A DNA stretch of 64,000 nucleotides from Lingula anatina (taxonomy: Eukaryota > Animalia > Brachiopoda): assembly GCA_051362555.1 (NCBI GenBank), contig JBPQGU010000016.1, positions 2,232,001 through 2,296,000 on the forward strand. Direction: 5' to 3'. Positions 1 through 63,158 of the stretch are shown here, piece after piece. The stretch's first letter is position 1, and each line of letters opens with the position of its first letter. A program made the translations under genes and the position numbers. The notes below the pieces were generated by a model that had not been told where the DNA came from, made no database searches, and worked only from the letters and a program-made list of their open reading frames with translations.

Positions 1-199
1 ATTAGTGAGTTCAGTAGGTGCGCCCACTACATGTATTATAAATATATATTTATTAAACCCTCTAAACTTTTTTCAGATTTAGCACACAAGTGTCACTAAC
101 CCTACACACAGATTTCTTCCTAAAAGCAGTCCTACTAGTAGGCCTACTGGCAATTTTCTCTCCAGCCTCAACTGAATGAGTTAATGATAATTCAGTCGC

Positions 200-485
200 C
201 ATATGCAGGTGGATGGTAGGAAAGATTTACATTTTATTTCCTATCCTTTTCCCATATTTTTCAATAGTTGGCACTTCAGCGGGTAACACGAAGCCTCAAC
301 ATGTTTCTCACATAGCTGCATCGTCTTCGACGGCTGATCAAAATCTTTACGTGCCACGCGAACAAAATTGATCCTTTGCCTTCTCAATGATTTTTCACCA
401 GAAAGCGATGGAAAGAAACTTCGTCAACAGAGCTCCTTTTGCATCCATACGCCACACAATAGCGTCTTTTGCCTCTCTTCAACAT
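200..485 (-). pseudogene. Decayed THAP zinc-finger ORF, probably from a DNA transposon
   Basis: Manual translation from ATG 485: MLKRGKRRYCVAYGCKRSSVDEVSFHRF, a 1-nt frameshift, then GEKSLRRQRINFVRVARKDFDQPSKTMQLCEKHVEASCYP. This fits the THAP C2CH pattern (CxxxxC...FHxFP...LCxxHF). Lower boundary approximate. Confidence 0.7.
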
Positions 486-1367
486 GTTTCACTTAGAATG
501 ATGAGAAATACAACCCGCTTCAAGCTCACAAACTATTCAGCAGCATGGCGGTGAAACGAGTGAAACGAGTCTACCAAATACATTACGTCATTTCCGTTTC
601 AGCGCCGGTTTTTTTTTTTTTTTTTTTTTTTTGCAGTCGCGTTTAGGTGCGATGTTTGGCATTATCGTCAGTTACAAGCTATCGTTCGGATCCGCAATAT
701 CCGGGAGAGGAATATTTAAAAAATACCTCGTCGGACTACATAAAAAATACGTTTCCACTGCTGTATTTCTTTAATAAATGGGTGGAAGACATTGTAACCG
801 CATTTAAGAATACTCCTGTCGCCTTTAATGGAATAACACGCTGCAACCAGTCCACCATCCCCCCTCCCTCGAAAGGCGAGACGCCTCTATCGTGCCAATC
901 ACGAAATGCCCTTTTCAGGGCACCCTATGTAGACCGGTATCTACTAATCTGATATTATGTAGGTGAGACACCTACCTTCCTATCAGAGACGATCTTTCCT
1001 CATAATAAAGGCGAGAAGCCTTACACACTCAAAAAGTCGCTCTCAACTATGCAAGGGGCGCTGTCAAAATACACGTCCTCAGAGGCCCAGCTCTGAATCG
1101 TGTTATTTTGGTAAAGTGGAATCTAACTAGGGCATGAGCCGACCACCCCCAACAAGTTTTGACTCGAGATTTAAGTGCATGTTAAAAAACACTTGATTTT
1201 CATTGCACAGACACATCAAAGCAATACAAATTTACATTATCCTACTAACTGATTTCCTTTCAGAGGCGGATTAAATTCGTCGACCCCCCACTATATATAC
1301 AAAGATACACTTAAACCCACTTAGTGATATGTCACAAGAAAACTAAAATGTACTTATTCATTACTTA

Positions 1368-1936
1368 ATGCCCCTATTTCACACAGACCACAAATCCCAC
1401 GAATCGCCAGGAATTGACAAATTTCAGGATTCGTGAGATTTTGCAAATTTTCTGGTCTAATTCGACACGCTGTACGATTCAGTTACGATACAGGTGCGAT
1501 AGTGTTACGAATATTCGTGGGATTCGGCTGGAATCGCACAAATATTGTCTCGAAATTTACAACGATTTTTTGGAATCGAGAATTCGTGGCCAAAATTTTG
1601 AATAGCTCAAAAACTTGCCACGAATTCACGATTGATCAAGAATTGCAAGAACTGACTACGATAATATACGAATCTGTTAAGAACTTCACGAACTGATTAC
1701 GATTCAACCACGAATCCTGAAATTTGTCAATTCCTGGCGATTCGTGGTCTGTGTGAAATAGGGGTATCAAAGTTTTTGCCACGAATTCCTGTTGGTCAAG
1801 AATTGCAAGAACTGACTACGATTAAATACGAATCTGTCAAGAACTTCACGAACTGATTACGATTCAACCATGAATCCTGAAATTTGTCAATTCATGGCGA
1901 TTCGTGGAATTCGTGGTCTGTGTGAAATAGGGGCAT
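1368..1936. mobile_element. MITE with long terminal inverted repeats and a duplicated right half
   Basis: Left end atgcccctatttcacacagacca...gaattgacaaatttcaggattcgtg is the reverse complement of ~1709-1765 and ~1869-1936. A ~160-bp internal direct duplication lies at ~1617-1766 and ~1778-1936. TA/TWA flanks. Confidence 0.85.
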
Positions 1937-1990
1937 TACTGGAAGAAAGTAGTCCTATCTAGAGGTACGCTGGCATAGAAAATTAGTAAT

Positions 1991-2227
1991 TTAGCTTTGA
2001 ATATTGCATTTTTCACAAACCATACATGAATGCACACGAATGCAGTCGATAGTCATTCCATACCAAAATACACTTTGTCTCAACTTAGAAAGCATCCAAA
2101 CTATCTCTTGATGACCTAAAATAACCGGGTCATATGACACAACGATAAGGCGACCTGTTGAAATCCTTTGGGTAATGCCAAAAGAGGGTTTAGCCTTGCT
2201 CATATCTGTTGTAGTTAAAAACTCCAT
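1991..2227 (-). mobile_element. Ty3/Gypsy LTR-retrotransposon integrase zinc-binding domain remnant
   Basis: ORF has GH...KLRQSVFWYGMTIDC...CEKC, matching the integrase H2C2 pattern (GH...RLRQRFYWxGM..D....CxxC). No flanking RT or integrase core is visible. Confidence 0.6.
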
Positions 2228-2793
2228 TTTTCATGGACAACAATGTTTGTAGCAATTGATTTTTTTTTTCAGATTTTATAGGGTGGTTATCAATTTTAAT
2301 CTATCTCTAGTGTACAGATTGGGTGCTGTTTCCCTAAATTTCGAAAACTGGATTTTTTTCCTTTAACGGTAATCACTAAAACAATGTTTTGTTTAATTTC
2401 CACTAAAATTTGCCCTTCAGGGTGTTTCCAAACGTTTAAAATTCACCCCGATGAGGTCATCAAATATGTATATGATTTACGGTGGGGCAACAGTTTATGC
2501 ATTCAATGAATGCAACGTTCAAATATGAATTATTAGAAATTGACTCAGAAACCTAAACAAGGGACCAATGGCTCCGTTACAAATAGGGTTAGAAACAAAT
2601 AAATACGAAAGACTTGCTTACTGTTTCGTTTTATTCGCACAGCATGTTTTGGAGATAGGAGTGTATGCCGTTAATACCTTATCATATTAACAAAAACTTT
2701 TTTATATTTATTTATTCATTTATTTCTTTATTTACTATTATAAACGAATGGTGATTTTACAAAGATTGGTAATACTAAGGGTATCTACTACAG

Positions 2794-4179
2794 GACACAC
2801 ATCCTTATGGTGAACAACCAGAAGCTTATGCTAAGGGGGATCACACCAACATTGTCGTCGTCGGGAAGACAGGGGTCGGAAAGAGTTCTACCTGTAATAT
2901 GATGGTGGGAAAAGCAGTTTTCAAAGCGGAAATGTATCCTACCAGTGTAACGGAAGACCTGTCATCTCACTGTGTCAAATTGCATGGACGCAACCTTCGC
3001 CTCATTGATACTCCCGGTCTTTTAGAAACTGCTTCGTTTAAAAGGTTTGAAGTTATAAAGAAAATCACGTCGAAATGCTTTAGTTTGCTCGACGGCGAGG
3101 AAGGTATCGATGCTTTCTTGTTTGTCATTCGCTGCGACGATAGTCCATCTCAAGAGGAAGTGAACGCTTTAATTCAGTTAATAACGTTGTTTTCAGAAGT
3201 CATTTTTGAATACATGGTTGTTGTGGCTACGCACAAGGACGAACTTGATAAGAACGGACAGTCAACAGAAAGTTTCAGAAGCAATCTTCCCGACAAAATG
3301 AAGACAATCCTTCAAAAGGCCGGAGGCAGAATGGTGTTCATCAACAGCGTCACCCGAAACAAGAATGAGCGTATAGGCTACGCCAAATCCATCATTAAAC
3401 ATGCTGATAGCATTGCAAGAGCTCATGAAGGTAAGAAATATTCCAATGAGGCGATCGGCCAAGCACGCAAGAAAAGACGAGAACTGAAAAAAAAATATCC
3501 TCACCTGAATGACGCCGGTATACAAGAGGAATTAGAAAAAGTGGTCCAGTCATATTTAACATCACAGTACTGGTGTTTCGACGGCTCTTCCACTGTGCGA
3601 CTAAGAGATGGGTCAGTCACACCAATGGCCAAACTATCTCCCGGTGACAAGGTGCTATGTGTTAGGGATAATGGCTTTGTTGGCTTCGAGGAAATCTTCT
3701 GCTTCAGTCATGCCGATGACAATTCTCAAACTATATATATCCACCTGCAGACCGCAACCGGGCAACACCTTCTCCTCTCTCACGGTCATTATATCCACGC
3801 TTCCTCCGATTCTACATCATTCCCATTTTCCCTGAAAGCCGCCCGTGATATCCGAGTTGGAGATGTAGTGTCCGTTTATCACCCTGAGACAACTGCCATG
3901 TTTATGGATGAAATTGTGTCAACAGGCACAAAGAAGGTCACCGGAGCCTTTTGCCCTCATACCATGAGCGGCACCATCATCGTGAATGATATTTTGGCCT
4001 CGTGTTACACCGATGCAGTAAGTCCTCAGATGGCGAGAAAATTGCTCATTCCAGTCTGGTGTCTATACAGGTTGCTTCCGGTGCATGTGTCTGCGCCTGT
4101 GTTGAAAGATGGCGTTTCAAATATCTGTAAAATATTAAGCGCGACGAAGCAATATTTAAAAAAGTCTTTACAAAATTAG
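2794..4179 (+). CDS. GIMAP/AIG1-family GTPase fused to a C-terminal Hedgehog-type Hog (Hint + SRR-like) domain; terminal exon, 5' exon not located
   Basis: The open frame extends upstream of the ORF-track Met to the acceptor ctacag|2794. It gives NIVVVGKTGVGKS (G1), SVT (G2), LIDTPG (G3), GIDAFLFVI (conserved box), THKD (G4) and FIN (G5). From 3574: CFDGSSTV...GDKVL...LLLSHGH...VGDVV...GAFCPHTMSGTIIVNDILASCY (Hint blocks), then a hydrophobic SRR-like tail. In-frame stops at 2770 and 2776 require an upstream exon. Confidence 0.92.
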   Translation, partial: DTHPYGEQPEAYAKGDHTNIVVVGKTGVGKSSTCNMMVGKAVFKAEMYPTSVTEDLSSHCVKLHGRNLRLIDTPGLLETASFKRFEVIKKITSKCFSLLDGEEGIDAFLFVIRCDDSPSQEEVNALIQLITLFSEVIFEYMVVVATHKDELDKNGQSTESFRSNLPDKMKTILQKAGGRMVFINSVTRNKNERIGYAKSIIKHADSIARAHEGKKYSNEAIGQARKKRRELKKKYPHLNDAGIQEELEKVVQSYLTSQYWCFDGSSTVRLRDGSVTPMAKLSPGDKVLCVRDNGFVGFEEIFCFSHADDNSQTIYIHLQTATGQHLLLSHGHYIHASSDSTSFPFSLKAARDIRVGDVVSVYHPETTAMFMDEIVSTGTKKVTGAFCPHTMSGTIIVNDILASCYTDAVSPQMARKLLIPVWCLYRLLPVHVSAPVLKDGVSNICKILSATKQYLKKSLQN

Positions 4180-4321
4180 CGGGCACGCTAACCACTATGA
4201 GTGACTTAATGTCTGTTGCAGGGAGCGGAATTCAATTGAATATCTAAGAGTCAAATGTCATATTTTTGTAAACATGAATAGCTACCCTGCAACTAAGGTT
4301 ATACTGATGCAGTTTGCTTTA

Positions 4322-6726
4322 CGGCTGTTTCACAATTAGGGGTTCAAAATACGTGTCACATTGAGAGAAAAATGAACTCTGATGCATTTGTTTAATTTAG
4401 TAACAGATAAAAAGAATAACAACTTAACTATGATATCTACAATTTTAGAACACAGTATTAATTACTTTTTGTGCTACGCTCAAATTAACAGAACGCCCCT
4501 TAGACTATATAATCTGGGGGTACGGACACCACACATTCAAGTAACTGATGCTTTTGTAACTGAAATATCATATTGTTTACCAGTTATTTTTGCCAAAATT
4601 CTAAAAAATATCAAACTAAAGATATAACAGCAGTACTTTAACCAAAAGGATACAAGTACATGTATTAATCAAAGAGTTTTTTAGAGAAACACCACAGCAC
4701 GTTTTTCAGTGGCTGCTGGAGCTTGGTTGTGTGTCATTCAGTTTGACTTTCATTCACCAGACTTTAATTTTAACTTTTCTTTCTGTTGCTTGACATTTTT
4801 CATTTATTCATTTTTTTTTTTTTTTTGGTTCAGTCTTGATTCCAGTTTTTTGGAGTCTTTTCTTCTTTTTCATCTCTCGTTAATTTGCACCTCTTGTTCT
4901 ACTGTTTTCAGGATTGTTGGGTCTCTGCTTCTCCTTAACTCTCTGTCAGTATGCCCCAATTTTTTTTCTTTACTTTAGTCTATCTTGCTGGACCAGCCTA
5001 GGATGATTCTTCATTTTTTTTTTTTTTTGCTTCTCTTCTATGTTACGCGCATTCAACGTATAACGTCTTCCTTACGTGCTTCAGCAAGATTATCTTTACG
5101 GATATTAGCTCTTTGACGTCTTTTTTTTTTTTTTTCAAATTATTTTTTGCTGAAGGTAAAATTTTCAGGATCCCTTTTTCTTTTCCCATTTGGCTTTTTG
5201 TTTATTGTCATCCTTATTTGATACTTCTGTTACGAATAAGCAAACGTCTTTAGTCTTTTTCACATCTATTTTATTTGCTTGTCATTGAAATTGTCACGTA
5301 GAAACTGAAATGAACAAAATACATCAAATTAAGAAATTATCCTTAAATTATGTTACAATTACAACTTATAAAGTTCTTATTAACTGTTTAAATTACTAAA
5401 TGATTCATAAAGTCTTACCTCATTGCGGGAATTAGTGACTTTTAATGATCAGAACATAACTATGATAAGCGTGTGCTCTAGTAAAAAAAGTAAAACGTTA
5501 TCTCCACCGATGTTGCATAACAGCTAAAACGGGCCAAACCTTAACAACTTCATTCACTGAGAGTATCATAAATGAACTGTTAACTATGCATGTATTAAAG
5601 TGTTCGTACCGCCTCAAAATATATCATATTCATTAATCCGTAGAATATCAATCCATATACAGTTTATTATTTTGCAATTAGCTATATTTGGCAATATATT
5701 CAAACCAATATTGTTCATTTTGAATGCAAAGAGTAGCATCTTTACTGATATTATTTCTTTGCAAAATCTCTTGCCTGACTCTAATTAATCAGTATCTCTT
5801 TATCGAATATATATTTATATACAATGTTTTTTCTTAACATCACAAGACGTGAATGCATTTTATATAGTCTTAAACAATATTTTGTACCATATTTTTACTT
5901 TTTATCATCATTGATACGTAGCCAGTTATCCAATGGTTAAGGTATAACTTGGGGGGTACGGACACTACAGTAGGGGTACGGACACTACATTTGGCACCAA
6001 ATTCTTGCATATCTTTTCATAATAAGGGGTTATGTGCTATTTTCTTCCTGCAAATTAAATGTCAGTGTAGACATTATAGAATAATAAAATCAGACAGAAT
6101 ATGCTGTGATTCCTAAATAAAAAGATTGGGGGGGGGGGGGGGGTACGGACACTACAAAAAGTAGGAGACACCAAGGGGCTCAATATAATGGTTACATATG
6201 CACAACTCCTTTATTATGTTTAAGTCATAACATGGTAAATTCATCGTATTATCACGTAGGTGATTTCAAAGTAATATTTGGCCTTATCAAATATGTTTTT
6301 TATTGCATTAACAAAAATAAGTGAAATGTGTATCAAAGCCCGTTTCTGCAAAATGGTTAAAATATATTTTTACTCAGAACATATCTTTGGAAGAACCTGC
6401 TAGAAGAGAAGACAGATGTTGTGGGAATTATAGACCAATATCATATTCACCATAAATCATTGACATAAAGAGCTAGTGCATCATCTTTATGACCTTAATT
6501 GCAAATGACCCACCGTAACAGCTAAAAATAGGTATTTTTGAACACATAATTGGCTATATTTTTGTAAATTGTAATCCGATTATTATATATATTTTTTTTA
6601 TTTTGCTCCAATCAACAGTGCATTTAATATAAGTCTATCAGAAATCTCCAATCATAAATTGTTAATTCATCAGACACTTGTAACATTAACCACATTTAAT
6701 TTTTCACCCTGATTGTGAAACAGCCG
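4322..6726. mobile_element. ~2.4-kb non-autonomous DNA transposon with TIRs and a 4-bp TTTA target-site duplication
   Basis: ttta|cggctgtttcacaattagggg at the left and ccctgattgtgaaacagccg|ttta at the right. Internal motif ggggtacggacac repeated at ~4516, 5951, 5972 and 6139. Decayed Lys/Arg-rich ORF on the minus strand at ~4680-5189. Confidence 0.8.
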
Positions 6727-8379
6727 TTTAAGATCGAAGTATTTTATATGTATATATCATCTGCAATCTGGACGTTGCGAACTTTCGCGACTGAGGATAT
6801 TGTACAGCACAATTTTACTATTTGATTATGTGATAGGGTTGTAATTCCAAAACACACTTTAGTGTACATTTCAGAAAACAACCTAGCAAAAAATGGCCCA
6901 ATTGTTTCATTTCATCAATTATGTGTGTTCCCAAAATTATATTTAGAAGTTGTAATTATATTCATAGAAATCCTATCATCGAAAATGGCGAACACGACTT
7001 CTATACAAGGCACAATCAACTTAAGAAATGTCACTGTATACCAAATAGTGTGTAGTTTATTTAGAATTATGTTATTGTCTTTAAACTAAAAGGTGAAACA
7101 ACTTATATTCCTTTGATGTTAGGATGTTGCGATCCTTTCATCTAAGCAATATGTATACCCAGGGAGCAAAGTTTGGTACGTCTCAACGGTATTGGAATAC
7201 GTGATTTTTTCACCAAATCTTATTTTCTCGAGAATATAGCAAATGTATATACGAACATATTATTGTTCGGCTCATTTATTTTGCCTTTTTTACCGGCGAT
7301 GCTGTACATTTTGAATTTTCTTTCTTAAATTTAAATCAACAAATTGTAACCGGAGATAAAAAGAGTATTTTGTCTCCCACTCCGAGTGGCAAGTTGCCAA
7401 AACAACTCTGACAAAGCTTATTTCCGTTATTGTAGGTTTGCTGCGGTAGATATTTTCAGAACTGGGAGCAATGTTTTTAGTATACCCTTAAATTTCAACC
7501 CGAATGCAGGTTCTCTTCTTGCAGGCAAAAAAATTCCTACAGTAAATTTATCTCAATTAGTGGTCAGGATTTAAATTGGGTTATAGTGATATTGCTCGTG
7601 ATAATATTTGGCCTTTGTATCAAGGCCAATTTACATATGTAGTGGCTTAGCTAAAAAGTACACGTTAACGGTATTAGTAATTGCTTTACCATAGTGACAC
7701 GTGTAATAAGCAAAAGACACTTAGTCTCACAGATCCAACTACATTTCTTGTCTACATGTTGCAGAATGTTTTGATTATTCTCATTCTTTTTTTACATTTT
7801 TTGTACTAAAATGTGTTTTGTACATACAACGACAAATAACACCACAAACGACAACCATTTCAAAACGCTCAATTAAGACTCTCTCTCTCTTTTTTTTTTC
7901 ATATTGAACCTGCTAACCCACTTGCACTTTTGACTTTTTTATATTCAGTTTGAATAATTTGCAATGAATACAGAATTTTTATATTCAGTTTGAAGTTGAC
8001 TTGATTTTCTACATGTGTTGTGCCATATTACTTTTTTTTTTGGGGGGGGGGGGGTCGGGACGAACTTTCAGTATAATATGTACTGTCACAACATTTGAAC
8101 GACGTTATGATTGGGTTTTGTTTATTGTTACTTTGATGATATCAGATATTGATGTAAGATTTATGTATTATCATTGTCAATACGAGTGCGCCAAATCTAA
8201 GAATTTATTAAAATGACTCATTAGTCATGACAAATATTAGTATCTTTATAAATAACTATGTACTATTAAAGGGATAATAACTCTTCGTTCTGGCCATATA
8301 ATGAATTTTCCTGGAGTAAACAGCAATTTTCCCATACTTACCAATTGTTAATGAATCTATTTTTACATTCAGAGTTAGT

Positions 8380-17091: not shown

Positions 17092-17320
17092 AAAATAATG
17101 GTGCAAACAATTTTTCGTTAGTGCGTAGACTCTTACGCAATGATAATCAAATGCGCAATAGTTTATTTACGTAACAGTTATAACCCTGATTATAACCTAG
17201 TTAGATATGGGTTATGGGGTGTCCCTATCGGTCACATATTTTCAGGGTCAAAAAGTCCTTAAGTTATAGCGAGTACACAAGATACGCTTAGTTAACATCT
17301 AGTTCATCGAGGGGCGGTGT

Positions 17321-18940
17321 ATGGACTGTATACCCAGGTATCTCTCCAGCAATATGATGCAGTACCCATTGTATGTAGTATTATGGGTGGCATTGCTGCA
17401 CGGGAGAAGCGCCTGTCTTGGTGCGAAGATATTCATGTTGCCGTACACGCAGGTGTTCAACTCCCGGACGCTGAACATGGAGAAAATCGCCCGTCTTCTC
17501 ACTGACCGCGGCCACTCGGTCACAATGATGGTGGCTGACCACTACAAACCACGGACAAACATTGGCGGCGTGTCGCTGGTCAGATTTGAGACACCCAAGC
17601 TGGAGGTGAACAAAGCGGGGGAGTTGGCCTTGGATACGACCATGAGCTCTGTTTACGAGGGTCTCGAGAAGATGATGGCGGCAATGGACGAGATGGAAGA
17701 AGCTTTCTGCCTTTTTTTATTAAGAAACGAAACAATGTTGCAAGAATTGAAAGCGACCAATTTTTCGTTGTTTCTCTTTGACTTGGTCAATTTGGGATCT
17801 GGTCCCCTACTAAACGACTTTTTAGAAATCCCGTCCATTGCATACTCCAATTTAGGATTCTGGGACCCGTGGCACGTGTTTCGCCAGCCGGTGTTTAAGT
17901 CCTTCACACCGGCCATTCCCGGGGGCTACTCCGACCACATGACGTTTTGGGAAAGACTCCACAATTCCGACATAGAAAACGAAGTCAACGATTGGCTAGA
18001 CAAGAAAATAGAACGCACAGATGCCATGGTGTTGGAGTATTTTCCAAAGAAGCCTTGGCCCCCCATGAAGAGAGCATTTGAAAGAGTTTCTCTGATGATT
18101 GCCGCCAATGTCGACTTCGCTCTGGATTATCCCAGACCGGTCATGCCTCACGTTAAACCAATCTCTGGACTTCTTTGGACACCACCCAAACCTCTGCCAA
18201 AGTTTTACCAAGACTTAATGGCGTCTAGGCGTCATGGTGTTGTCGTGATGAGTTTCGGTACCTTAGTAGCAGAACTTACCGAGGAGATGGCGGAAGGCAT
18301 CGCAAGAGTGTTCGCCAAACTACCTCAAACTGTCATCTGGAGATACAAGGGACCTGTTCCGAAGTCTCTTGGGAAAAACACGCACCTGGTCGACTGGTTT
18401 CCACAAAACGATATCCTTGCGCACCCTGCCACGAAACTCTTCATCACCCACTGTGGGGTCAGTAGCACATGGGAAACCCTGTATCACGCCGTCCCCGTTG
18501 TGGCTGTCCCGTTAATTTGGGATCAGCATCAGAACGCCAGAAAACTCACAGACAGGTGCAAAATTGGAGTATCTCTCAGCTTCCTGACTTTCACTGAGGC
18601 GGACTTCGAGAGCGCCATACAAAGAGTTCTTAACAACAGGACATACAAGGACAACGCCGTTAAAATATCCGCGCTTTTAAAGGACCAACCCATGTCGGGC
18701 CAAGACCAATTGCTGTTTTGGATAAACTATGTTATACGTCACAACGGGACCCTCCATTTTCACTCCCAGGCTTCCTACAATCTTAACTGGTGCCAGTATT
18801 TCTTAGTTGACATTATTGCCTACAAGATAGCAGTTATATGTTTACACTACATCTTTGTGTTAGCCAGTGCACTTTTGTTTTGGAAATTACTAAAATACAC
18901 ATGGTTTTTATATTCAAAACAGAAGAAAAAAGCAGTTTGA
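17321..18940 (+). CDS. UDP-glycosyltransferase (GT1/UGT family), intronless, 539 aa
   Basis: Signal-peptide-like N terminus, RGHSVT, UGT signature WFPQNDILAHPATKLFITHCGVSSTWETLYHAVPVVAVPLIWDQ, C-terminal TM helix and dilysine ER-retrieval tail KKKAV. The true start may be a downstream Met. Confidence 0.96.
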   Translation: MDCIPRYLSSNMMQYPLYVVLWVALLHGRSACLGAKIFMLPYTQVFNSRTLNMEKIARLLTDRGHSVTMMVADHYKPRTNIGGVSLVRFETPKLEVNKAGELALDTTMSSVYEGLEKMMAAMDEMEEAFCLFLLRNETMLQELKATNFSLFLFDLVNLGSGPLLNDFLEIPSIAYSNLGFWDPWHVFRQPVFKSFTPAIPGGYSDHMTFWERLHNSDIENEVNDWLDKKIERTDAMVLEYFPKKPWPPMKRAFERVSLMIAANVDFALDYPRPVMPHVKPISGLLWTPPKPLPKFYQDLMASRRHGVVVMSFGTLVAELTEEMAEGIARVFAKLPQTVIWRYKGPVPKSLGKNTHLVDWFPQNDILAHPATKLFITHCGVSSTWETLYHAVPVVAVPLIWDQHQNARKLTDRCKIGVSLSFLTFTEADFESAIQRVLNNRTYKDNAVKISALLKDQPMSGQDQLLFWINYVIRHNGTLHFHSQASYNLNWCQYFLVDIIAYKIAVICLHYIFVLASALLFWKLLKYTWFLYSKQKKKAV

Positions 18941-41900: not shown

Positions 41901-44900
41901 AATGCAGACAAGACAGCAAGTCCAAAAGACCATGACACACGGTTGTTGTCAGGGTCTGGCATCCAGGTGCGACCATCTTTGGTTATGGTTCCAAAAACTG
42001 TGACGATGATTCCTTCTAGTAATGCTGTAAAAGAAAACAACCAAGTGTTTCATTATAGCCTTTTTGTATGAATTGTTTATCCTTTTATAATTAAAATGTA
42101 TTATTTTTATCTACATTATTTTTCATGGCTGCATTAGTTTTACTCTTTAGTTATTTCAGTAAATCTTTACTGAACTCTTGCGTATCTTTCAATAAAAAAA
42201 TCTCATTTATTACCACTTTGGCACAAAGGGCTTTAGTTTTTTCCTCCAATCTTGTGCCACCCCCTTTGTGAGAAGTTTGTGAATTTCAAAAAGCTAATGA
42301 ACTTTATATAAAGAAGTTTGAGAATCAGTCTCAGTGGAGGTTGATGGCAGGTGTAAGGGTTTTCTAGTTCTTTAATCTGTATACACAACCTGAGCTCCCC
42401 CCCCCCCCGCCATAATAAATAGGTAAATAATTAAAATAGATAATAGTGATAATAATAATAATAATCTGAGGAGCATTCAATTCTGCCCAATGGTTGTAAT
42501 TTACTAATATTAGTCACAAACTTGCTGCTGTACTTATTTCCCCTAAGCTCTTAGGGCTTGGTTATCTATTTCACCACCCTTCCGTATCTTCCAGATTTTC
42601 TTTTCCTGTCCCTAAATTTACAAGGTGATAATGGTGGTTTTATTGTGTCTGTGCACACCTTCAAAGACCCCCCCCCCCCCCACCCCCAGATAATTCTAAC
42701 CAACCACTTTCTAACCAGCCCGTCTCAGTGCAGGTGATGGCAGGCAGTGTTTGCTGCAGTTACGTATTCCACATGAGCTCTTGGGGCTTTCCCCAAATTT
42801 CTACTTATCTTCCCTAAATTCACAGGATGATAAAGGTGGGATAAGTGTGTCTGTGCACACTTTCAAGTCCCTGCCCCCTACAATTATTACTAATCAGCTA
42901 TTGCTACTGACCCAAATCTTTAAAGTTATCAAGTACAAACCTGCAGCAATGCTTATTCCTCCTGAGATTTTTAATGCTGAGCTATCTGTCTCACAGCACT
43001 GGAAGAGGAAGCCTCCCTCTGCAAAGGAGGCAGTCATGAAGACAAACACGGCAATCAGACTCAGGTACTGGCAGGCGATGAACCACGCTGTGAAAGAGAT
43101 GTAACAAGAAAGTCAATTAAATGAGTACCAAAATAAATGTTGTTAGCCATCCAGTAGAATAAGAATGATAAAAATGAATGATTCTGATACTGGAACCTGC
43201 ATTATGTCAGTTGTTAAATGTAAGTTCCAGTATCAGAGTTATTCATGTTTATTAAAGTGAATTAAAATTAGGATTAGATGAAAAGTTCAAAATAGAATTA
43301 AGTCCCAACTCAAGTTTTATTTAACTACAACACTACTGTTGTCTATGACTATAACATGTGTACAATAGCATTAATAATATATAGCAGATACTAATAGGCT
43401 AACCCAGGCTTCAATAGAATATTGACATGTATAATTTAACAATAATTGATACATTAAAATGAAGTAGGATAATTTGATTGAACTTGGCTGTGATTCATTT
43501 CACAAAGCATAAATATAAAATTAATGTAGTATACATCTTTATAGATGAATAACACCTTATATCTAAAGACATGGTTGAAATTAAGTTTTTTCCCAATTAT
43601 GGTATAGATATCATTAATCTACAGTGGGATTTTATTGCAGGTTGATAAGAAAATCAATTTGCATTTTAATCAAGATATTTGACCAGTGACTCACACCTGT
43701 TGATGCAGGTTGAATTTGGGGTCACTCATGACAGTGAGACTTAAAGTCTTTACAACAAACTCATTGAATTTAACAGGCATTTTTACACCATTTATAAGAC
43801 ACAATTTAAATTTTTTACAACAGGTATCATTTTGAAGAAAAGGTGTTATATTTAAACCTGAGTAGTGTATTATTTGTAGTTTTGAAGTGAAACAAATGCT
43901 GTTTTTTTGCCAGTATCTCCTGGTGAAAAATTCAGAAATAACATCCACTTTCACTAAACACATTTTACATTGTGCACAAACTCATAATGACCTCTCTTGT
44001 CATATATTTCAGTATATATCCCTCAATACTCACGTGGCATTAAGTGGTCTCTCATCCACCAGTATTCTGGAGAATAAACCCACCAACATCCACTGTAAGG
44101 CTTGGCTAACAGGTCATCTGGGTTTCTGTAATTGTCCAGGCAAAACTCCCACAGTCCACACCGCACAAAGCCATGGCTGTCTCTAATGTCTGATTTCTCA
44201 TACCAGTTAGGGGTACAGAAGCCTACTATGTTGAAAAGTAGAGCTAATAGGCTTAATGCGAAGCCGATGTAAAATGTAGCGTTGGACCCCATCTTTAAGT
44301 CTCCAAATTCAAGATGGTGGCCTCCTTCTATGGCAGTTGAGGGGGGAGTGCAGGTCTTTGGGACTGATGGGTAATTCATTATTGTTTGGTAATTTTGAAA
44401 TTTTGTTTTAAGATTCTGCAGTTGGTATGTATTTAGGATCGACCAAAATTGTCATATGTACAATTGATATGGTTTTATTTCTTTGATATTTCATGTTTTA
44501 TTAGATTTATTCTGACTATGGCAGTCATTAAGTCCTGAGTTTATCAATCCCATGAGACCTTTTTTCACCTGGCCATGACAAACATACCTGGCTGCCATTT
44601 TAATGAGATCATAAACTGGGTCACTTGTATTCCAGCTGGAGGGGTGACAGGTTGTGTCACCCTGTAAACACCAGATAAGGATATGATTGGTTTATTACCC
44701 AGGCTTTAAACTTTATCAGTTACTGCAGTTAAAGTTAGGCAAGTGCTGTAAACAATGTGATACAGATTTGTGGGGAAAAATTGGCCAAATATTTTATTTA
44801 TTCATCCATTTCATTTTTGTTTTTTTATTTTTTGTACTGACAACTAATTTGTTTGGAATTAAGACTTAAACAGTGTTCTTATAAACATGGGTGCAAATTC

Positions 44901-58305: not shown

Positions 58306-60897
58306 CTAAATATGAAATATCGTTTTAATTGTGAAAGCTCCTATCATTGATATTGTCAGTATTACTGCAATGAGCATGACGTTACGGCCAAACCGCTGCA
58401 TGTCTCTAGGGAGAAGATAGCAACTGAATTCCACCGTAAGGTGGAACAACACGTACGATATAATCAAATAAATCACAGTTGAGAAGGCGAGATTTAGAAG
58501 CGGATAACCTGGAATATACCCTATAAGTTCTTTTGCGTTTGACTGCAGGTAGACGTGTAGCTGACTGAGATAAGTTTCAAGGGTAATTTTCCCCAGAAAC
58601 GCAAACAAGTTTAGATAGTGTGTCCTCGCTACTGGGAATAAGTTCCTGAGCACTATGAAAATAAGGATTGGGGTCCAGGAGGTGTACGGATGGAGCGCGT
58701 TATATTCGTGTTTATCTTTCGTCATGACTTCTTCGTACCATATGATACCAATTACGACGGCCACGCCCGCCATGCAGAGCTTAATCCCAAGAGACGTGAG
58801 ACGCTCTCCCTTATAGGACGCTTTTTCATCCAACCAATTCATTAGATTTTCGTAGTGCGGATAGTTATAGGCGCACAGCATTCCAACAAAAGTCGCCCAA
58901 TGATCCAAACCGCCTCTGAACGCCCACTCGTGCATTAAGGGATAATTCCCGTTATGGAACTTTAGGATAATCCAAGCAGGGTAAAACACCTTCTCACATA
59001 CCCCAGGGACGTCGAATATGATCGCATTTGCCAAAGCGTACGCTGCGAATTTGATGAGCATCAAAAAGCGGTTCTGGTTCCACGAGTTAAATGTGCGCAT
59101 GAAAATATAGACCGTTAAGAACCAGTACGTATGCATGGCGCAGATGTAGTAATTCATGTACTCGTTGTCGGTCACTGCACACATCACGATGACCAGGAAG
59201 TTAAGACGGAAGAGCATCTTGAGCATGCGCCACAGGGAAAAGTCTTTCCGAACCCAGAAGAAAGAAAAATTGCCTGAAAAAAAGAATCACCAGCCTAATA
59301 CATGATTTGGCCAATAACCAAACCATTCTTTTTTCTCGTCGGGTGACAATGAATATGAGTGAATATCCATCTTGCAATATTTGGCGTTTGTCATCTTATG
59401 CATGATTCTAATAATGTAAAAATAGTGTTGACCTAAATTAGATTGTTTTAGTGTGTGTGTGGAGAAATGATTTTGATTTTCCATTTGACTGAAAGGAAAC
59501 CCATAGTTAAGTTATTTGTGAGTGATCAGCCGTCTCAGAAACAGACCTACCGAAGCCTGTCATCCAGACATAGGCCGCGATGTACACGCGAATCCAGTTG
59601 TACCATTCCTTGGCGGCGAAGTAGTGGTACCATACAAACATCACCTGCATCCATCCTTTCCATTCTTCCGTCTGGTCCCTGTAAATGACATTGAGCGCCA
59701 CATGATTAAATTACCTTGTACTGTTACCAGAAATGTCTTGATGTGAAATAGTTTTTGTATTATCCATGACCCGTGTAAAGCACGCAGTCGAATGTTGAAG
59801 GCCTTTTGGCACAGGGTTGATATACATCATGATTCATAAATGTAGGTAAAACTACATTGTGCCTTCTTTAAAGTTTTGATTTCTTTTTACCAATAATAAG
59901 TTTCTTGTAGCATTTAGTTCCTTAGGGATAAGTTGGAGACAATGATTGAGATTCAGAAAATAACGGGATTCAGAAAATAATAATAATCAAAGTTGTACCT
60001 GTTTATCAGTTTATCAGCGGTTGGTGTGACGGTAAATGCACTTGCCACCAGGAACAAAAGAAACACCAGGAACAGAAACGTGTCTCGTACATAAACTCTC
60101 TCGGTGGCCGGAAACACCTGGGGAATGGAAAAGAGAAATGAAAGAAATCACGTGGTTAAGGCGCAGTCAGTACGTGGTCAATTCAAATATGAATACCACG
60201 TGCACATTGCTCTTTGCATTGTATAAATGACTATAACATTTAATACGGTATCAAGCTGAACCGTGTGTAAAGGCACAAAGGGTGAAGGTCAAAAAAAGTC
60301 ACGGCGTTCGAGTACATACACAAGTACAGGTAAAGGCTGCTATAAAAGAAAAATAATTAACGGTCCGCCTACCTTTCTGTAATCACAAAGATAAAAATAC
60401 ATCATGATGGCCCCAAACACCATCACGTATTTCAAAAAGTCGTCAAAAGAACATGGCGGCTTCACGCTTGTGAACGTCTTGTCGTTGCTCTTTAATTTCC
60501 CGCCATTTGGGAATTGTCCGTTATTTGGCTGTGTACTACTGACCACCACCATGTCAACTTTAACGCTATTGGATTTATTAGTTTCCCCACATATTTCAGT
60601 GCCGTTCTCTAGTTTTGTCAAAGTATCCTCAACTGCAGTCTTATGGTCAGCGGGCTGACCCTCTTCCCCTTCATCCTCAGCCTGCTTCGCTTTAATCAGG
60701 CCATCTTTTAGTGTAGGGGTCGTTTGGGTATCACGTTTACCCCGACAACGCCGTATCAACCACACCGCCCCGCATACCACCCATATGAGAAACAGAGCTA
60801 GCTGTTGGAGGGTGATTTCATGGCGGGGATAGAAAAAGACCGCCTTTGGTGTCGTTGAAGTGTTCTCTGCAGCTAAATTCGTCTTCAACAAGTCCAT
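58306..60897 (-). CDS. Cas1p-family multi-TM O-acetylation protein of the RWA (Reduced Wall Acetylation) type, 4 exons, ~579 aa
   Basis: Exons 60897-60373, 60117-59999, 59678-59551, 59273-58306 (1740 nt). Motifs [53 protein letters not shown]. Confidence 0.9.
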
Positions 60898-63158
60898 GGT
60901 GTGTCTTCGGCTTCTCCGATTCTAATTTGTTTTAATAATGGCGTAAATGGTTAATTGTGAAATATTTGTAGTGTGATCCACATGCCTCTACCTGGCGTGC
61001 GCACTGCTACTCCTTTTTTTTTCTTTTTGCCAGGACAAGATTAATTCCGCCAATCAAAGTCAATAAATAACTGATTAGTACAGCTAGCATTTAATAATAC
61101 CATCGTTGCCGGCCGCATTGTTGACTCGTGTAACTAAGTCACCCATAGTCCTCATATGGCCGATGTTTCTTCAGCCGTCATCTCTAGAAAAATATGTATG
61201 ATATACGTTTATTATTTTCAGTATGATCCATTTTGGCAATGTTTGAGACCAACAAGCTTAAACTATTCCCTTTGACGTGTCATCTGTCGTTTGTATCACC
61301 TATTGCCTCTATATAAACCGCTATGTTCTGCGAAATAGGCCTAATATGCTGGCATCGTAGGCTGAGTAGTTAAAATATTAATGCAGGCATTTGCTTGAAG
61401 GCAAAGTGAGCGCAATAAATAATACAGTGAAACAGATTTCTGTTCGTATCAGCTTGAAGGCAGAGAGAGAGAGAGAGATCAAATAAGCATTGCTCTGAGG
61501 CACAGAGAGAGGTGGTGGTGATGATGGCGACGCACTTTAATAAAATAGATGCCGTATACCCGCGTTAAACAATAAATATATACCGACCACGTAAGCACTC
61601 CAGTCTCTACTATTCTTCAAACCTTGCCCCTACCCCCCTAGCTTTACTTATTGGCAACTGAAATTAAATGCAAAAGAGCGTCTGGTGTGACAGCAATGGT
61701 GGTCGGCTAGGGACCGTAGTACGTACCCCATACGATGACATTTGTCCCAGATACTAACCCCAATACTCCGACTAACCCTAACCTGTATAATCATATGGGA
61801 CCCCGGACTTCAATTCCTAGGAATTAAGCGAATGAGAGAGAGAGAGAGAGAGACAGAGAGATGGCCAGGATGATAATGATGATAAAAATCGTACTCGCAC
61901 ACCTGTTTAGTATGCGCCGAATAAACATCATGTTAAACACTCCAGACCCCACCCAGCAATAACAGCATTGATAGGTAAATGACATTATATGCACAGGAGC
62001 TCCTGGCACTTTGTACCAAATGGCGACATCTATATTCTTTTCAAATAGTCATCATACGTACCTAAAATCGTGGCAGCCACGCTGCGTTTAGGTGCTTGAT
62101 CTAACAAAATAAGTAACGAGTTATATACGATTTAGATATTAAGTATATTCTTACCTAGACCCCAGGAGACAGAAGATTACAACGGTGCCTGCAAGTTCTA
62201 TCCCTACTAGTAGTCAGCCAAGTAGTTTGTCATATCGTCAGGAGGAGATCGTATGCAGACGATATCTTCTCCGAGTCGTAACACGCCCTCTGACACAGTC
62301 GACGTGGCTCTGTATATGCGTAGATCAGTATTTGCCTAGACTGGCTGCACTCACCCATAACGCTCCACCCAATACTGTATTTAACGCCCATCAATGAAGG
62401 ATTATATCATTACTGGTAAGATATACCGGTACACGGTGAGCACTCACGTAGTGGCTGTGTATCATTTTTTTTTTTTTTTTTTTTTTTTGAGACCCAAGGA
62501 TTGCAATTCATACAGTATACGTATATACATATTAAATTTATGGGTAGCATGTAGTACTACATGTAAATGGAGTGTGCTACTTCCTATATGGTTTATTTAT
62601 TGCTGCTGCTCTAAATTATAACTGAAAGGGATGACAACGCTTCATTTTGGCAGGAAAATTGCCATAAAATGGATTTTCTTGGTGCAAACGACAATTTTCC
62701 CATACTTTCCAATTCAAAGAAAGTTGATTGTTATATTTTTTTATGTGTTTTATTGTAATTATCTCTAAAGATATTATTATGGGGCGTAACAAGGTCCACG
62801 AGGTATGATGGCAAGTACAGACTCCAGAATAATTGCGATAATTGCCATTTAATTATTTCCTGTTAAAACGGGATATATCCATAAGTGTTGCTTACAATGT
62901 TTTCAATGTGGAATTTTGAATCTCATATGAACAGTATCTATCCTTTTAATCAATTCTGTTTATGCATGCATTTGTTACATAATAATTTATTCATCTAATT
63001 ATTTTATTCTATTAAATTTTAAGTTTTTAAAAATATTAATTGTTTTTCATTTATCTGTTGCTGAATACATTTTGCTTTTTGTTTGTTCTCGTATTTATTT
63101 ACTAGTGTTCACATTAACTTGAAAAGTGCTATAATTTTGATCTGTGCCCATATTTCTT

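Follow-up and report, generated by a model that had tools for sequence, protein, structure and literature searches.

An AIG1/GIMAP GTPase joined to a Hedgehog-type Hog module in Lingula anatina: a candidate self-cleaving protein with a probable MACPF head

The exon at 2794-4179

The window analysed here, a stretch of 64,000 nucleotides of Lingula anatina DNA, contains a stop-to-stop frame of 466 codons at 2779-4179 on the forward strand, the second longest among its 10 frames of at least 130 aa. Within this frame one exon joins an AIG1/GIMAP GTPase to a Hog module of the Hedgehog type. The features of the exon are given below; P0036 and P0190 are two Lingula anatina relatives described in the next section.

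2792-2793, forward strand: likely splice acceptor AG, phase 0 (sequence; the BLASTP match to P0036 begins at the first exon codon)
2794-4179, forward strand: last coding exon, with AIG1 GTPase, helical linker, Hog module and stop (open reading frame, Pfam and homology)
2848-3492, forward strand: AIG1/GIMAP G domain (Pfam PF04548, E 3.6e-42; GIMAP7 3ZJC, E 1.7e-21)
2863-2886, 3007-3018 and 3229-3240, forward strand: G-domain motifs P-loop, DTPG and THKD (alignment to GIMAP7)
3142-3144, forward strand: Ser in the conserved box, where most GIMAPs have Arg (column counts)
3493-3573, forward strand: helical linker up to and including Trp(-1), predicted to become the C-terminus (P0190 model, helices 610-625 and 631-647)
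3574-4008, forward strand: Hint domain (Pfam; Drosophila HhC alignment; P0190 model)
3574-3576, 3709-3711, 3778-3780, 3787-3789 and 4003-4005, forward strand: Hint residues Cys1, His46, Ser69, His72 and Cys144 (HhC alignment)
4009-4176, forward strand: SRR-like tail of 56 aa, an amphipathic helix-loop-helix (hydropathy; P0190 model; column counts)

A sequence-only reading had described a single exon with AIG1, Hint and a 56-residue tail, and the frame and the Pfam profiles bear this out. AIG1 covers aa 24-238 of the frame (144.5 bits, cut-off 27) and Hint aa 260-459 (E 4.2e-34, 118.4 bits, cut-off 29.7), both far over their cut-offs. Its placement of the junction Trp at 3571-3573, of Cys1 at 3574, of the ASCY end at 4008 and of the 56-aa tail is likewise correct. 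It overlooked that no start codon precedes the P-loop. The earliest Met of the exon is aa 41, downstream of the P-loop; with none ahead of it, the exon belongs to a longer gene as its 3′ part, and 5′ exons are needed. Homology makes the exon start at 2794 likely, as the P0036 alignment begins at residue 371, which corresponds to the first exon codon, and the AG at 2792-2793 lies at the boundary where relatives pass from a MACPF/helical part into the GTPase. A 43-nt intron between an ATG at 2748 and position 2793, giving an in-frame start, was set aside as unsupported. No second copy of the exon was found within the window by tblastn.

Four RNA runs from the same species (X1, X4, X7 and X9) were mapped on positions 1-8000 at 90% likeness. 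X7 and X9 cover the frame thinly, with bin depths of about 0.4-13, and of about 0.1-3 over the Hog part, and X1 and X4 have almost no reads on it. None of the 13 splice joints listed falls inside the frame, although splicing could escape notice at such low depth. Fixed differences from the window are present in the reads, for example at 3249 in 19/19 reads of X7 and 16/16 of X9, which places their origin in another allele or a paralog; a loose read end at 3355 also resembles a paralog. Thus a close allele or paralog of the frame is expressed.

Other features of the window are a MITE-like repeat at 1366-1938, with 70-nt terminal inverted arms (94%), a 116-nt internal duplication and heavy coverage by RNA reads from other copies; a UDP-glucuronosyltransferase of 545 aa in one frame at 17303-18940 on the forward strand (Pfam UDPGT, E 3e-96); a claudin-like exon at 44023-44451 on the reverse strand with a weak Pfam Claudin_2 match under the cut-off (E 7e-5); and, at 58306-59286 and 60340-60921 on the reverse strand, an exon for a CASD1-like 10-TM acyltransferase (Pfam Cas1_AcylT, E 9e-59) and what is probably another exon of this gene, upstream of it.

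The GTPase and the AIG1-Hog family

A HMMER search of 1.84 billion cluster representatives was run with examination of the best 150 of 8,630 matches, 27 of which carry a Hog domain. The closest among the matches listed are both from Lingula anatina: P0190 (LOC106179620, 859 aa), identical at 328/458 positions (72%), and P0036 (XP_013384271.1, 841 aa), identical at 304/459 (66%). Together with the window protein they form a clade supported at 100/100 by IQ-TREE. A Pfam scan of 27 chosen matches returned AIG1 and Hint in 26 and AIG1 only in one. Among the 20/27 whose hosts were looked up are, besides Lingula anatina, the bivalves Potamilus and Tegillarca, the gastropods Haliotis, Gigantopelta, Physella and Bradybaena, sea cucumbers, a crinoid (Hog by custom profile) and lancelets. 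The nearest Atlas cluster is an AIG1+Hint cluster of Mucoromycota (59 members, score 0.93). For residue counts we used 27 non-redundant AIG1-Hog relatives, obtained from 32 rows by leaving out P0035, where AIG1 is missing, and four near-copies from the clusters.

Other searches returned little. With the whole exon as query, a word-index search yielded 34 matches, none with Hint, over a length range of 253-807 that left out the 841- and 859-aa relatives; with the Hog region as query, 1 of 533 candidates was a match, and this Hog protein lacks AIG1; and a metagenome scan yielded no relative among 201 pattern matches.

In a FastTree phylogeny all 28 fused domains lie inside one clade of 36 (support 0.967). 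An IQ-TREE analysis of 70 rows, comprising those 36 and a random 34 of the remaining 115, recovered a similar group at 83/31; it needed 6 label changes, where shuffling gave a mean of 22. The fused domains are clustered, but with IQ-TREE support of just 83/31 a single origin of the fusion was not adopted.

A PDB sequence search with the frame returned human GIMAPs and Hedgehog chains. The window GTPase shares with human GIMAP2, GIMAP5 and GIMAP7 the G domain and the C-terminal helices, and the P0190 model superposes on GIMAP7 with Z 28.4 and rmsd 2.0 over 232 residues. G1, G3 and G4 align with GIMAP7, and through the same alignment we take G2 to lie near 2944-2952 and G5 near 3340-3348. Unlike the human proteins, the window protein has no transmembrane anchor and has Ser in place of the conserved-box Arg. 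The two Lingula relatives have Thr and Met in this column, the remainder of the box aligns in the window GTPase, and among the best 150 of 8,630 matches the Arg is found in 17/27 Hog-fused and 87/123 unfused AIG1 domains. We take this Arg to be the arginine finger of GIMAP7; its loss predicts slow GTP hydrolysis. It is no strict requirement of GIMAPs, given coral GiMAPs without any recognisable conserved box.

The pairing of AIG1 with Hog has been described before in corals, snails, lancelets and a fungus, and by itself it is ordinary for the AIG1-Hog family. Hedgehog-like self-processing with lipid modification was reportedly proposed for GmGIN1 of Glomus mosseae by Requena and colleagues in 2002, so the mechanism suggested by the sequence-only reading probably has precedent. 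The novelty which that reading gave the pairing was overstated, as AIG1+Hint appears in at least four accounts (PMC2362128, PMC3723955, PMC7053062, PMC12373286). GmGIN1 is described as lacking a signal peptide and as carrying a bona fide Hog after its AIG1-like GTPase, the same order as in the window protein, with His46 in the same H-A-D context; it differs in being fungal and in having Gly at -1, and no MACPF head is part of its description in PMC2362128. Four Acropora AIG1+Hint sequences, for which splicing was supposed, are given in supplementary file S4 of PMC3723955, a snail AIG with a Hint domain in PMC7053062, and CARD+AIG1+HINT proteins of lancelets and fungi in PMC12373286. The Acropora, Biomphalaria and lancelet proteins have the two-domain core of the window protein, are presented in these sources as domain lists, and have CARD heads or none. 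Lancelet architectures are called unique to amphioxus among animals in PMC12373286; in contrast, our matches place AIG1+Hint also in a brachiopod, bivalves, gastropods, sea cucumbers (one with CARD) and a crinoid. CARD+AIG1+Hint is found in P0056, P0080, P0091, P0112 and P0117, and since P0056 comes from a sea cucumber, lancelets are not the only animals with this layout.

In a crude hydropathy screen of relatives from the best 150 of 8,630 matches, the N-terminus has no hydrophobic stretch in 27/28. The window protein is thus probably cytosolic rather than of the ER lumen, as the sequence-only reading had supposed. The only signal-peptide-like N-terminus among the 28 belongs to P0054 (Potamilus streckersoni, KAK3590788.1); it may reflect an artefact of the gene model or a variant that is secreted.

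The Hint active site and the adduct-recognition tail

The Hint match spans positions 7-210 of the 213 in the profile, reaching the SRR part. Drosophila HhC (1AT0, 6TYY) aligns with the window Hint over 145-146 residues at E ~1e-13 to 1e-14, and C1, H46, S69, H72 and C144 fall on Drosophila C258, D303, T326, H329 and C400, C144 being the Drosophila C143. The Hedgehog-like self-processing site of the earlier reading is therefore intact, with C1, S69, H72 and C144 joined by H46. Among the relatives from the best 150 of 8,630 matches, His46, His72 and S/T69 are each present in 27/27, C1 in 25/27 (one of the others is truncated and one has an aberrant junction) and C144 in 24/27; position 69 is Ser rather than Thr in the window protein and likewise in 20/27. 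The residue at -1, Trp and not Gly in the window protein, is variable across the family. The Hint domain is also the better conserved part of the protein: 124/145 residues are identical to P0190, as against 146/218 in the GTPase, and identities to the two Lingula relatives are 85% and 77% for Hint versus 67% and 65% for the GTPase.

Comparison of structures leads to the same fold. A single-sequence model of the window protein was unusable (pLDDT 37.8). The AlphaFold model of P0190, the 72% relative, built from a 31-row alignment, has block pLDDT of 77-96 over Hint and superposes on 1AT0 with Z 26.1 and rmsd 1.3 over 145 residues at 30% identity, and on 6TYY with rmsd 1.4. The window protein thus shares with HhC the Hint fold, C1, T/S69, H72 and C143, and a helix-loop-helix tail, and its His46 matches the engineered D46H variant 6TYY. 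It differs in having no Hedge domain, with AIG1 and the helical linker directly before Cys1 instead, in being probably cytosolic as opposed to entering the ER lumen, in its Trp at -1, and in not keeping HWY or the helix-1 H/F/R.

The general base of HhC, Asp46, is replaced by His46. According to PMC9163320, Drosophila Hedgehog D303A keeps DTT cleavage and loses cholesterylation, H329A and T326A impair both steps, and D303H (D46H) is active with a widened sterol range. A natural His46 appears in the supplementary alignment of PMC2362128 for GmGIN1, Monosiga hoglet, Trichinella Hh and Capitella Hh. The activity of D46H and the natural His of the Trichinella and Capitella proteins mean that the absence of Asp46 does not exclude the reaction. 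Because the adduct step requires position 46 and the thioester forms without it, the invariant His suggests selection on nucleophile activation.

The 56-aa tail has a hydrophobic moment of up to 0.60 and a best 19-residue hydropathy of 1.33, with no stretch of transmembrane strength, and the P0190 model has tail helices at 802-818, 821-828 and 832-858 (pLDDT 55-82). The SRR of SHH takes the form of a helix-loop-helix (PMC7242414, PMC7906309), and cholesterol transfer by SHH is reported to depend on H374, F377, R381, H433 and an aromatic residue at 435, Ala at H374, R381, H433 or Y435 blocking cholesterolysis (PMC7242414). The window tail has R, L and W at H374, F377 and R381, and S-N-I at HWY in a helix-2 register that was inferred from a Gly anchor. 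Relatives from the best 150 of 8,630 matches are closer to SHH in helix 1, with H374 in 22/27 and R381 in 21/27, have Leu at F377 in 26/27, and replace HWY by a Pro-x-Trp pattern (Pro 23/27, Trp 17/27). P0099 and P0072 are typical members, each with the His and Arg in helix 1 and the Trp in helix 2. The window tail departs from its own family in helix 2, and the Lingula relatives deviate similarly. Judged by these residues, the tail is an adduct-recognition region in Burglin's sense and not a canonical SRR. As the residues for SHH cholesterol transfer are mostly missing, sterol transfer is weakened for the window copy, and its transfer of cholesterol appears doubtful. The earlier proposal of a sterol or other adduct on the N-terminal fragment thus keeps the active-site set, H46 included, and loses the support of most residues that SHH requires in the tail (H374, F377, R381, H433, Y435).

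The probable MACPF head and the proposed self-processing

P0036 and P0190 have 370-390 residues ahead of the point where the window exon starts. These Lingula heads match those of the mollusc proteins P0099, P0055 and P0059 at ~1e-9 to 1e-13, and P0099 in turn matches stonustoxin alpha (E 7.7e-6) and beta (E 4.9e-4). A head profile of nine rows matches 4WVM_A at E 2.8e-9 (positions 11-337) and 4WVM_B at E 4e-8. Pfam MACPF matches are weak and under the cut-off (P0099, E 0.0015; P0055, E 0.0046), and the Lingula head alone gave no match to Pfam MACPF and no phmmer match to stonustoxin. In the Atlas, structural comparison of the P0190 1-390 model gives MACPF_SNTX clusters in rows 1-8 of the best 10, with TM 0.71-0.72 across 346-357 residues, and its best Atlas feature matches are MACPF-type at 0.94-0.95, in clusters that each have fewer than half of their members assigned to the family. 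In the P0190 AlphaFold model the head is of poor quality (block pLDDT 25-75), and the fold lists for that model hold no MACPF chain because GTPase and Hint folds filled them. Compared with the stonustoxin-type MACPF/CDC family (PF24674; 4WVM), the N-terminal 390 residues of P0190 match the MACPF domain and the helical part that follows; thioredoxin-like and PRY domains come after MACPF in stonustoxin clusters, and the relatives have AIG1 and Hog instead.

Among the best 150 of 8,630 matches, the head profile finds the domain in 9/28 Hog-fused relatives and in 0/123 unfused ones, leaving 19/28 Hog-fused relatives without a MACPF head. Seven of the nine had been in the profile seed; P0158 and P0119 are independent, at 1e-28 and 1e-27. 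No MACPF exon was found in the six frames of the window with the head profile (best E 0.63) or tblastn, so the head is either encoded before base 1 or absent from the window copy. We consider it quite probable, from the relatives, that 5′ exons before base 1 encode a stonustoxin-type MACPF domain of the window gene. The sequence-only reading had cleavage release the GTPase, which is incomplete in that the nearest relatives carry this head in front; the released piece would probably be a MACPF domain with the GTPase, not a lone GTPase. New here, besides the residue analysis of the active site, the tail and the GTPase, is the stonustoxin-type MACPF head in the two closest relatives and several mollusc proteins, from which its presence in the window gene is inferred. 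In the literature searched, whose coverage leaves out most subscription journals, we found no description of the MACPF-AIG1-Hog layout or of a self-cleaving mechanism for AIG1+Hint.

A mostly rotifer Atlas cluster, with AIG1 on 67% of its members, also matches the MACPF head at TM 0.69, and MACPF+AIG1 fusions may extend more widely than the Hog-bearing set.

Here we propose that the window exon would be the second half of a cytosolic MACPF-GTPase-Hog precursor that cuts itself at Trp/Cys1. Following Hedgehog chemistry, Cys1 would perform the N-S shift assisted by S69 and H72, the acyl group would then move to C144, the amphipathic tail would dock on a membrane and His46 would activate the incoming hydroxyl. 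The front part would be joined to a membrane lipid alcohol, anchoring a would-be pore-former on the membrane; the acceptor would likely be a sterol, not necessarily cholesterol. With GTP bound and hardly any hydrolysis of its own, the GTPase would serve as a scaffold, and the domain families suggest a possible role in cell-autonomous defence. That the Hog works like the Hedgehog C-terminal domain at least to thioester formation is quite probable, as is self-cleavage itself. Given cleavage, a lipid adduct has about an even chance, and cholesterol is not safe to assume. Self-cleavage combined with transfer of the front part onto a membrane lipid is thus held tentatively, at somewhat less than an even chance.

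A self-cut without any adduct we regard as possible though well short of even. The tail would then tether or restrain the precursor, and the thioester would be hydrolysed or thiolysed, a one-way switch that frees the GTPase together with its MACPF head. The residues that form the thioester are all there and the SHH cholesterol-contact residues are not; SHH mutants without helix 2 or the whole SRR are reported to cleave without cholesterol (PMC7242414), and bacterial polymorphic toxins to use Hint domains for release of toxin domains (PMC3417536). However, both tail helices are kept, as is His46 in 27/27 relatives (from the best 150 of 8,630 matches), at a position dispensable for DTT cleavage of Hedgehog (PMC9163320). 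Such family-wide retention is more than plain cleavage needs, unless His46 serves to activate water. A copy that is inactive in its Hog, or a silent or partial duplicate working, if at all, as an uncut GTPase with its tail on membranes, is unlikely. It would account for the bulky Trp at -1, for a tail drifted from both Hedgehog and the family consensus, for the lost conserved-box Arg, for 2.8 kb upstream without a 5′ exon and for the near lack of reads in 2/4 runs; against it stand a frame of 1.4 kb without stops, the retention of all five active-site residues, a Hint domain better conserved than the GTPase relative to both Lingula proteins, and a near-identical copy present in RNA-seq runs X7 and X9.

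The Hint fold is shared with inteins (Z 14-20.5), which end in a C-terminal His-Asn followed by Cys, Ser or Thr. The window domain terminates in the Hedgehog-type ASCY and not in His-Asn ahead of a nucleophile, and 1AT0 (Z 26.1, 30% identity) is closer than any listed intein (Z at most 20.5, identity at most 16%). An intein that splices the GTPase to the tail, as was suggested for coral AIG1-Hint (PMC3723955), is therefore very improbable.

Whether any Hog outside Hedgehog adds a lipid is an old question, raised for nematode Hog proteins in PMC2362128, and interception by cholesterol is restricted to Hedgehog proteins according to PMC7242414. The AIG1-Hog family offers a direct test case, being probably cytosolic, spread over at least 5 animal phyla and fungi, and naturally bearing His46, which in Drosophila HhC was introduced by engineering to broaden the range of sterols. 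A layout of MACPF, AIG1 and Hog in one protein would connect pore formation in invertebrate defence with self-cleavage and the attachment of a lipid. A more specific and less likely extension is that cytosolic defence proteins of brachiopods and molluscs arm a stonustoxin-type pore-former by self-lipidation: the Hog would meet the target membrane, His46 would ester-link MACPF-GTPase to its sterol, and the GTPase would scaffold the pore. If true, this would amount to sterol ligation of the Hedgehog type by a non-Hedgehog protein working away from the ER, its diverged tail choosing the lipid as the step that recognises the membrane.

In Hedgehog, C143 is reported to make a branched thioester (PMC12054796). 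The Branchiostoma AIG1-Hog proteins P0072, P0186-P0188 and P0064 have Thr in place of this branch-point Cys, which makes them a natural test of the branched-intermediate step.
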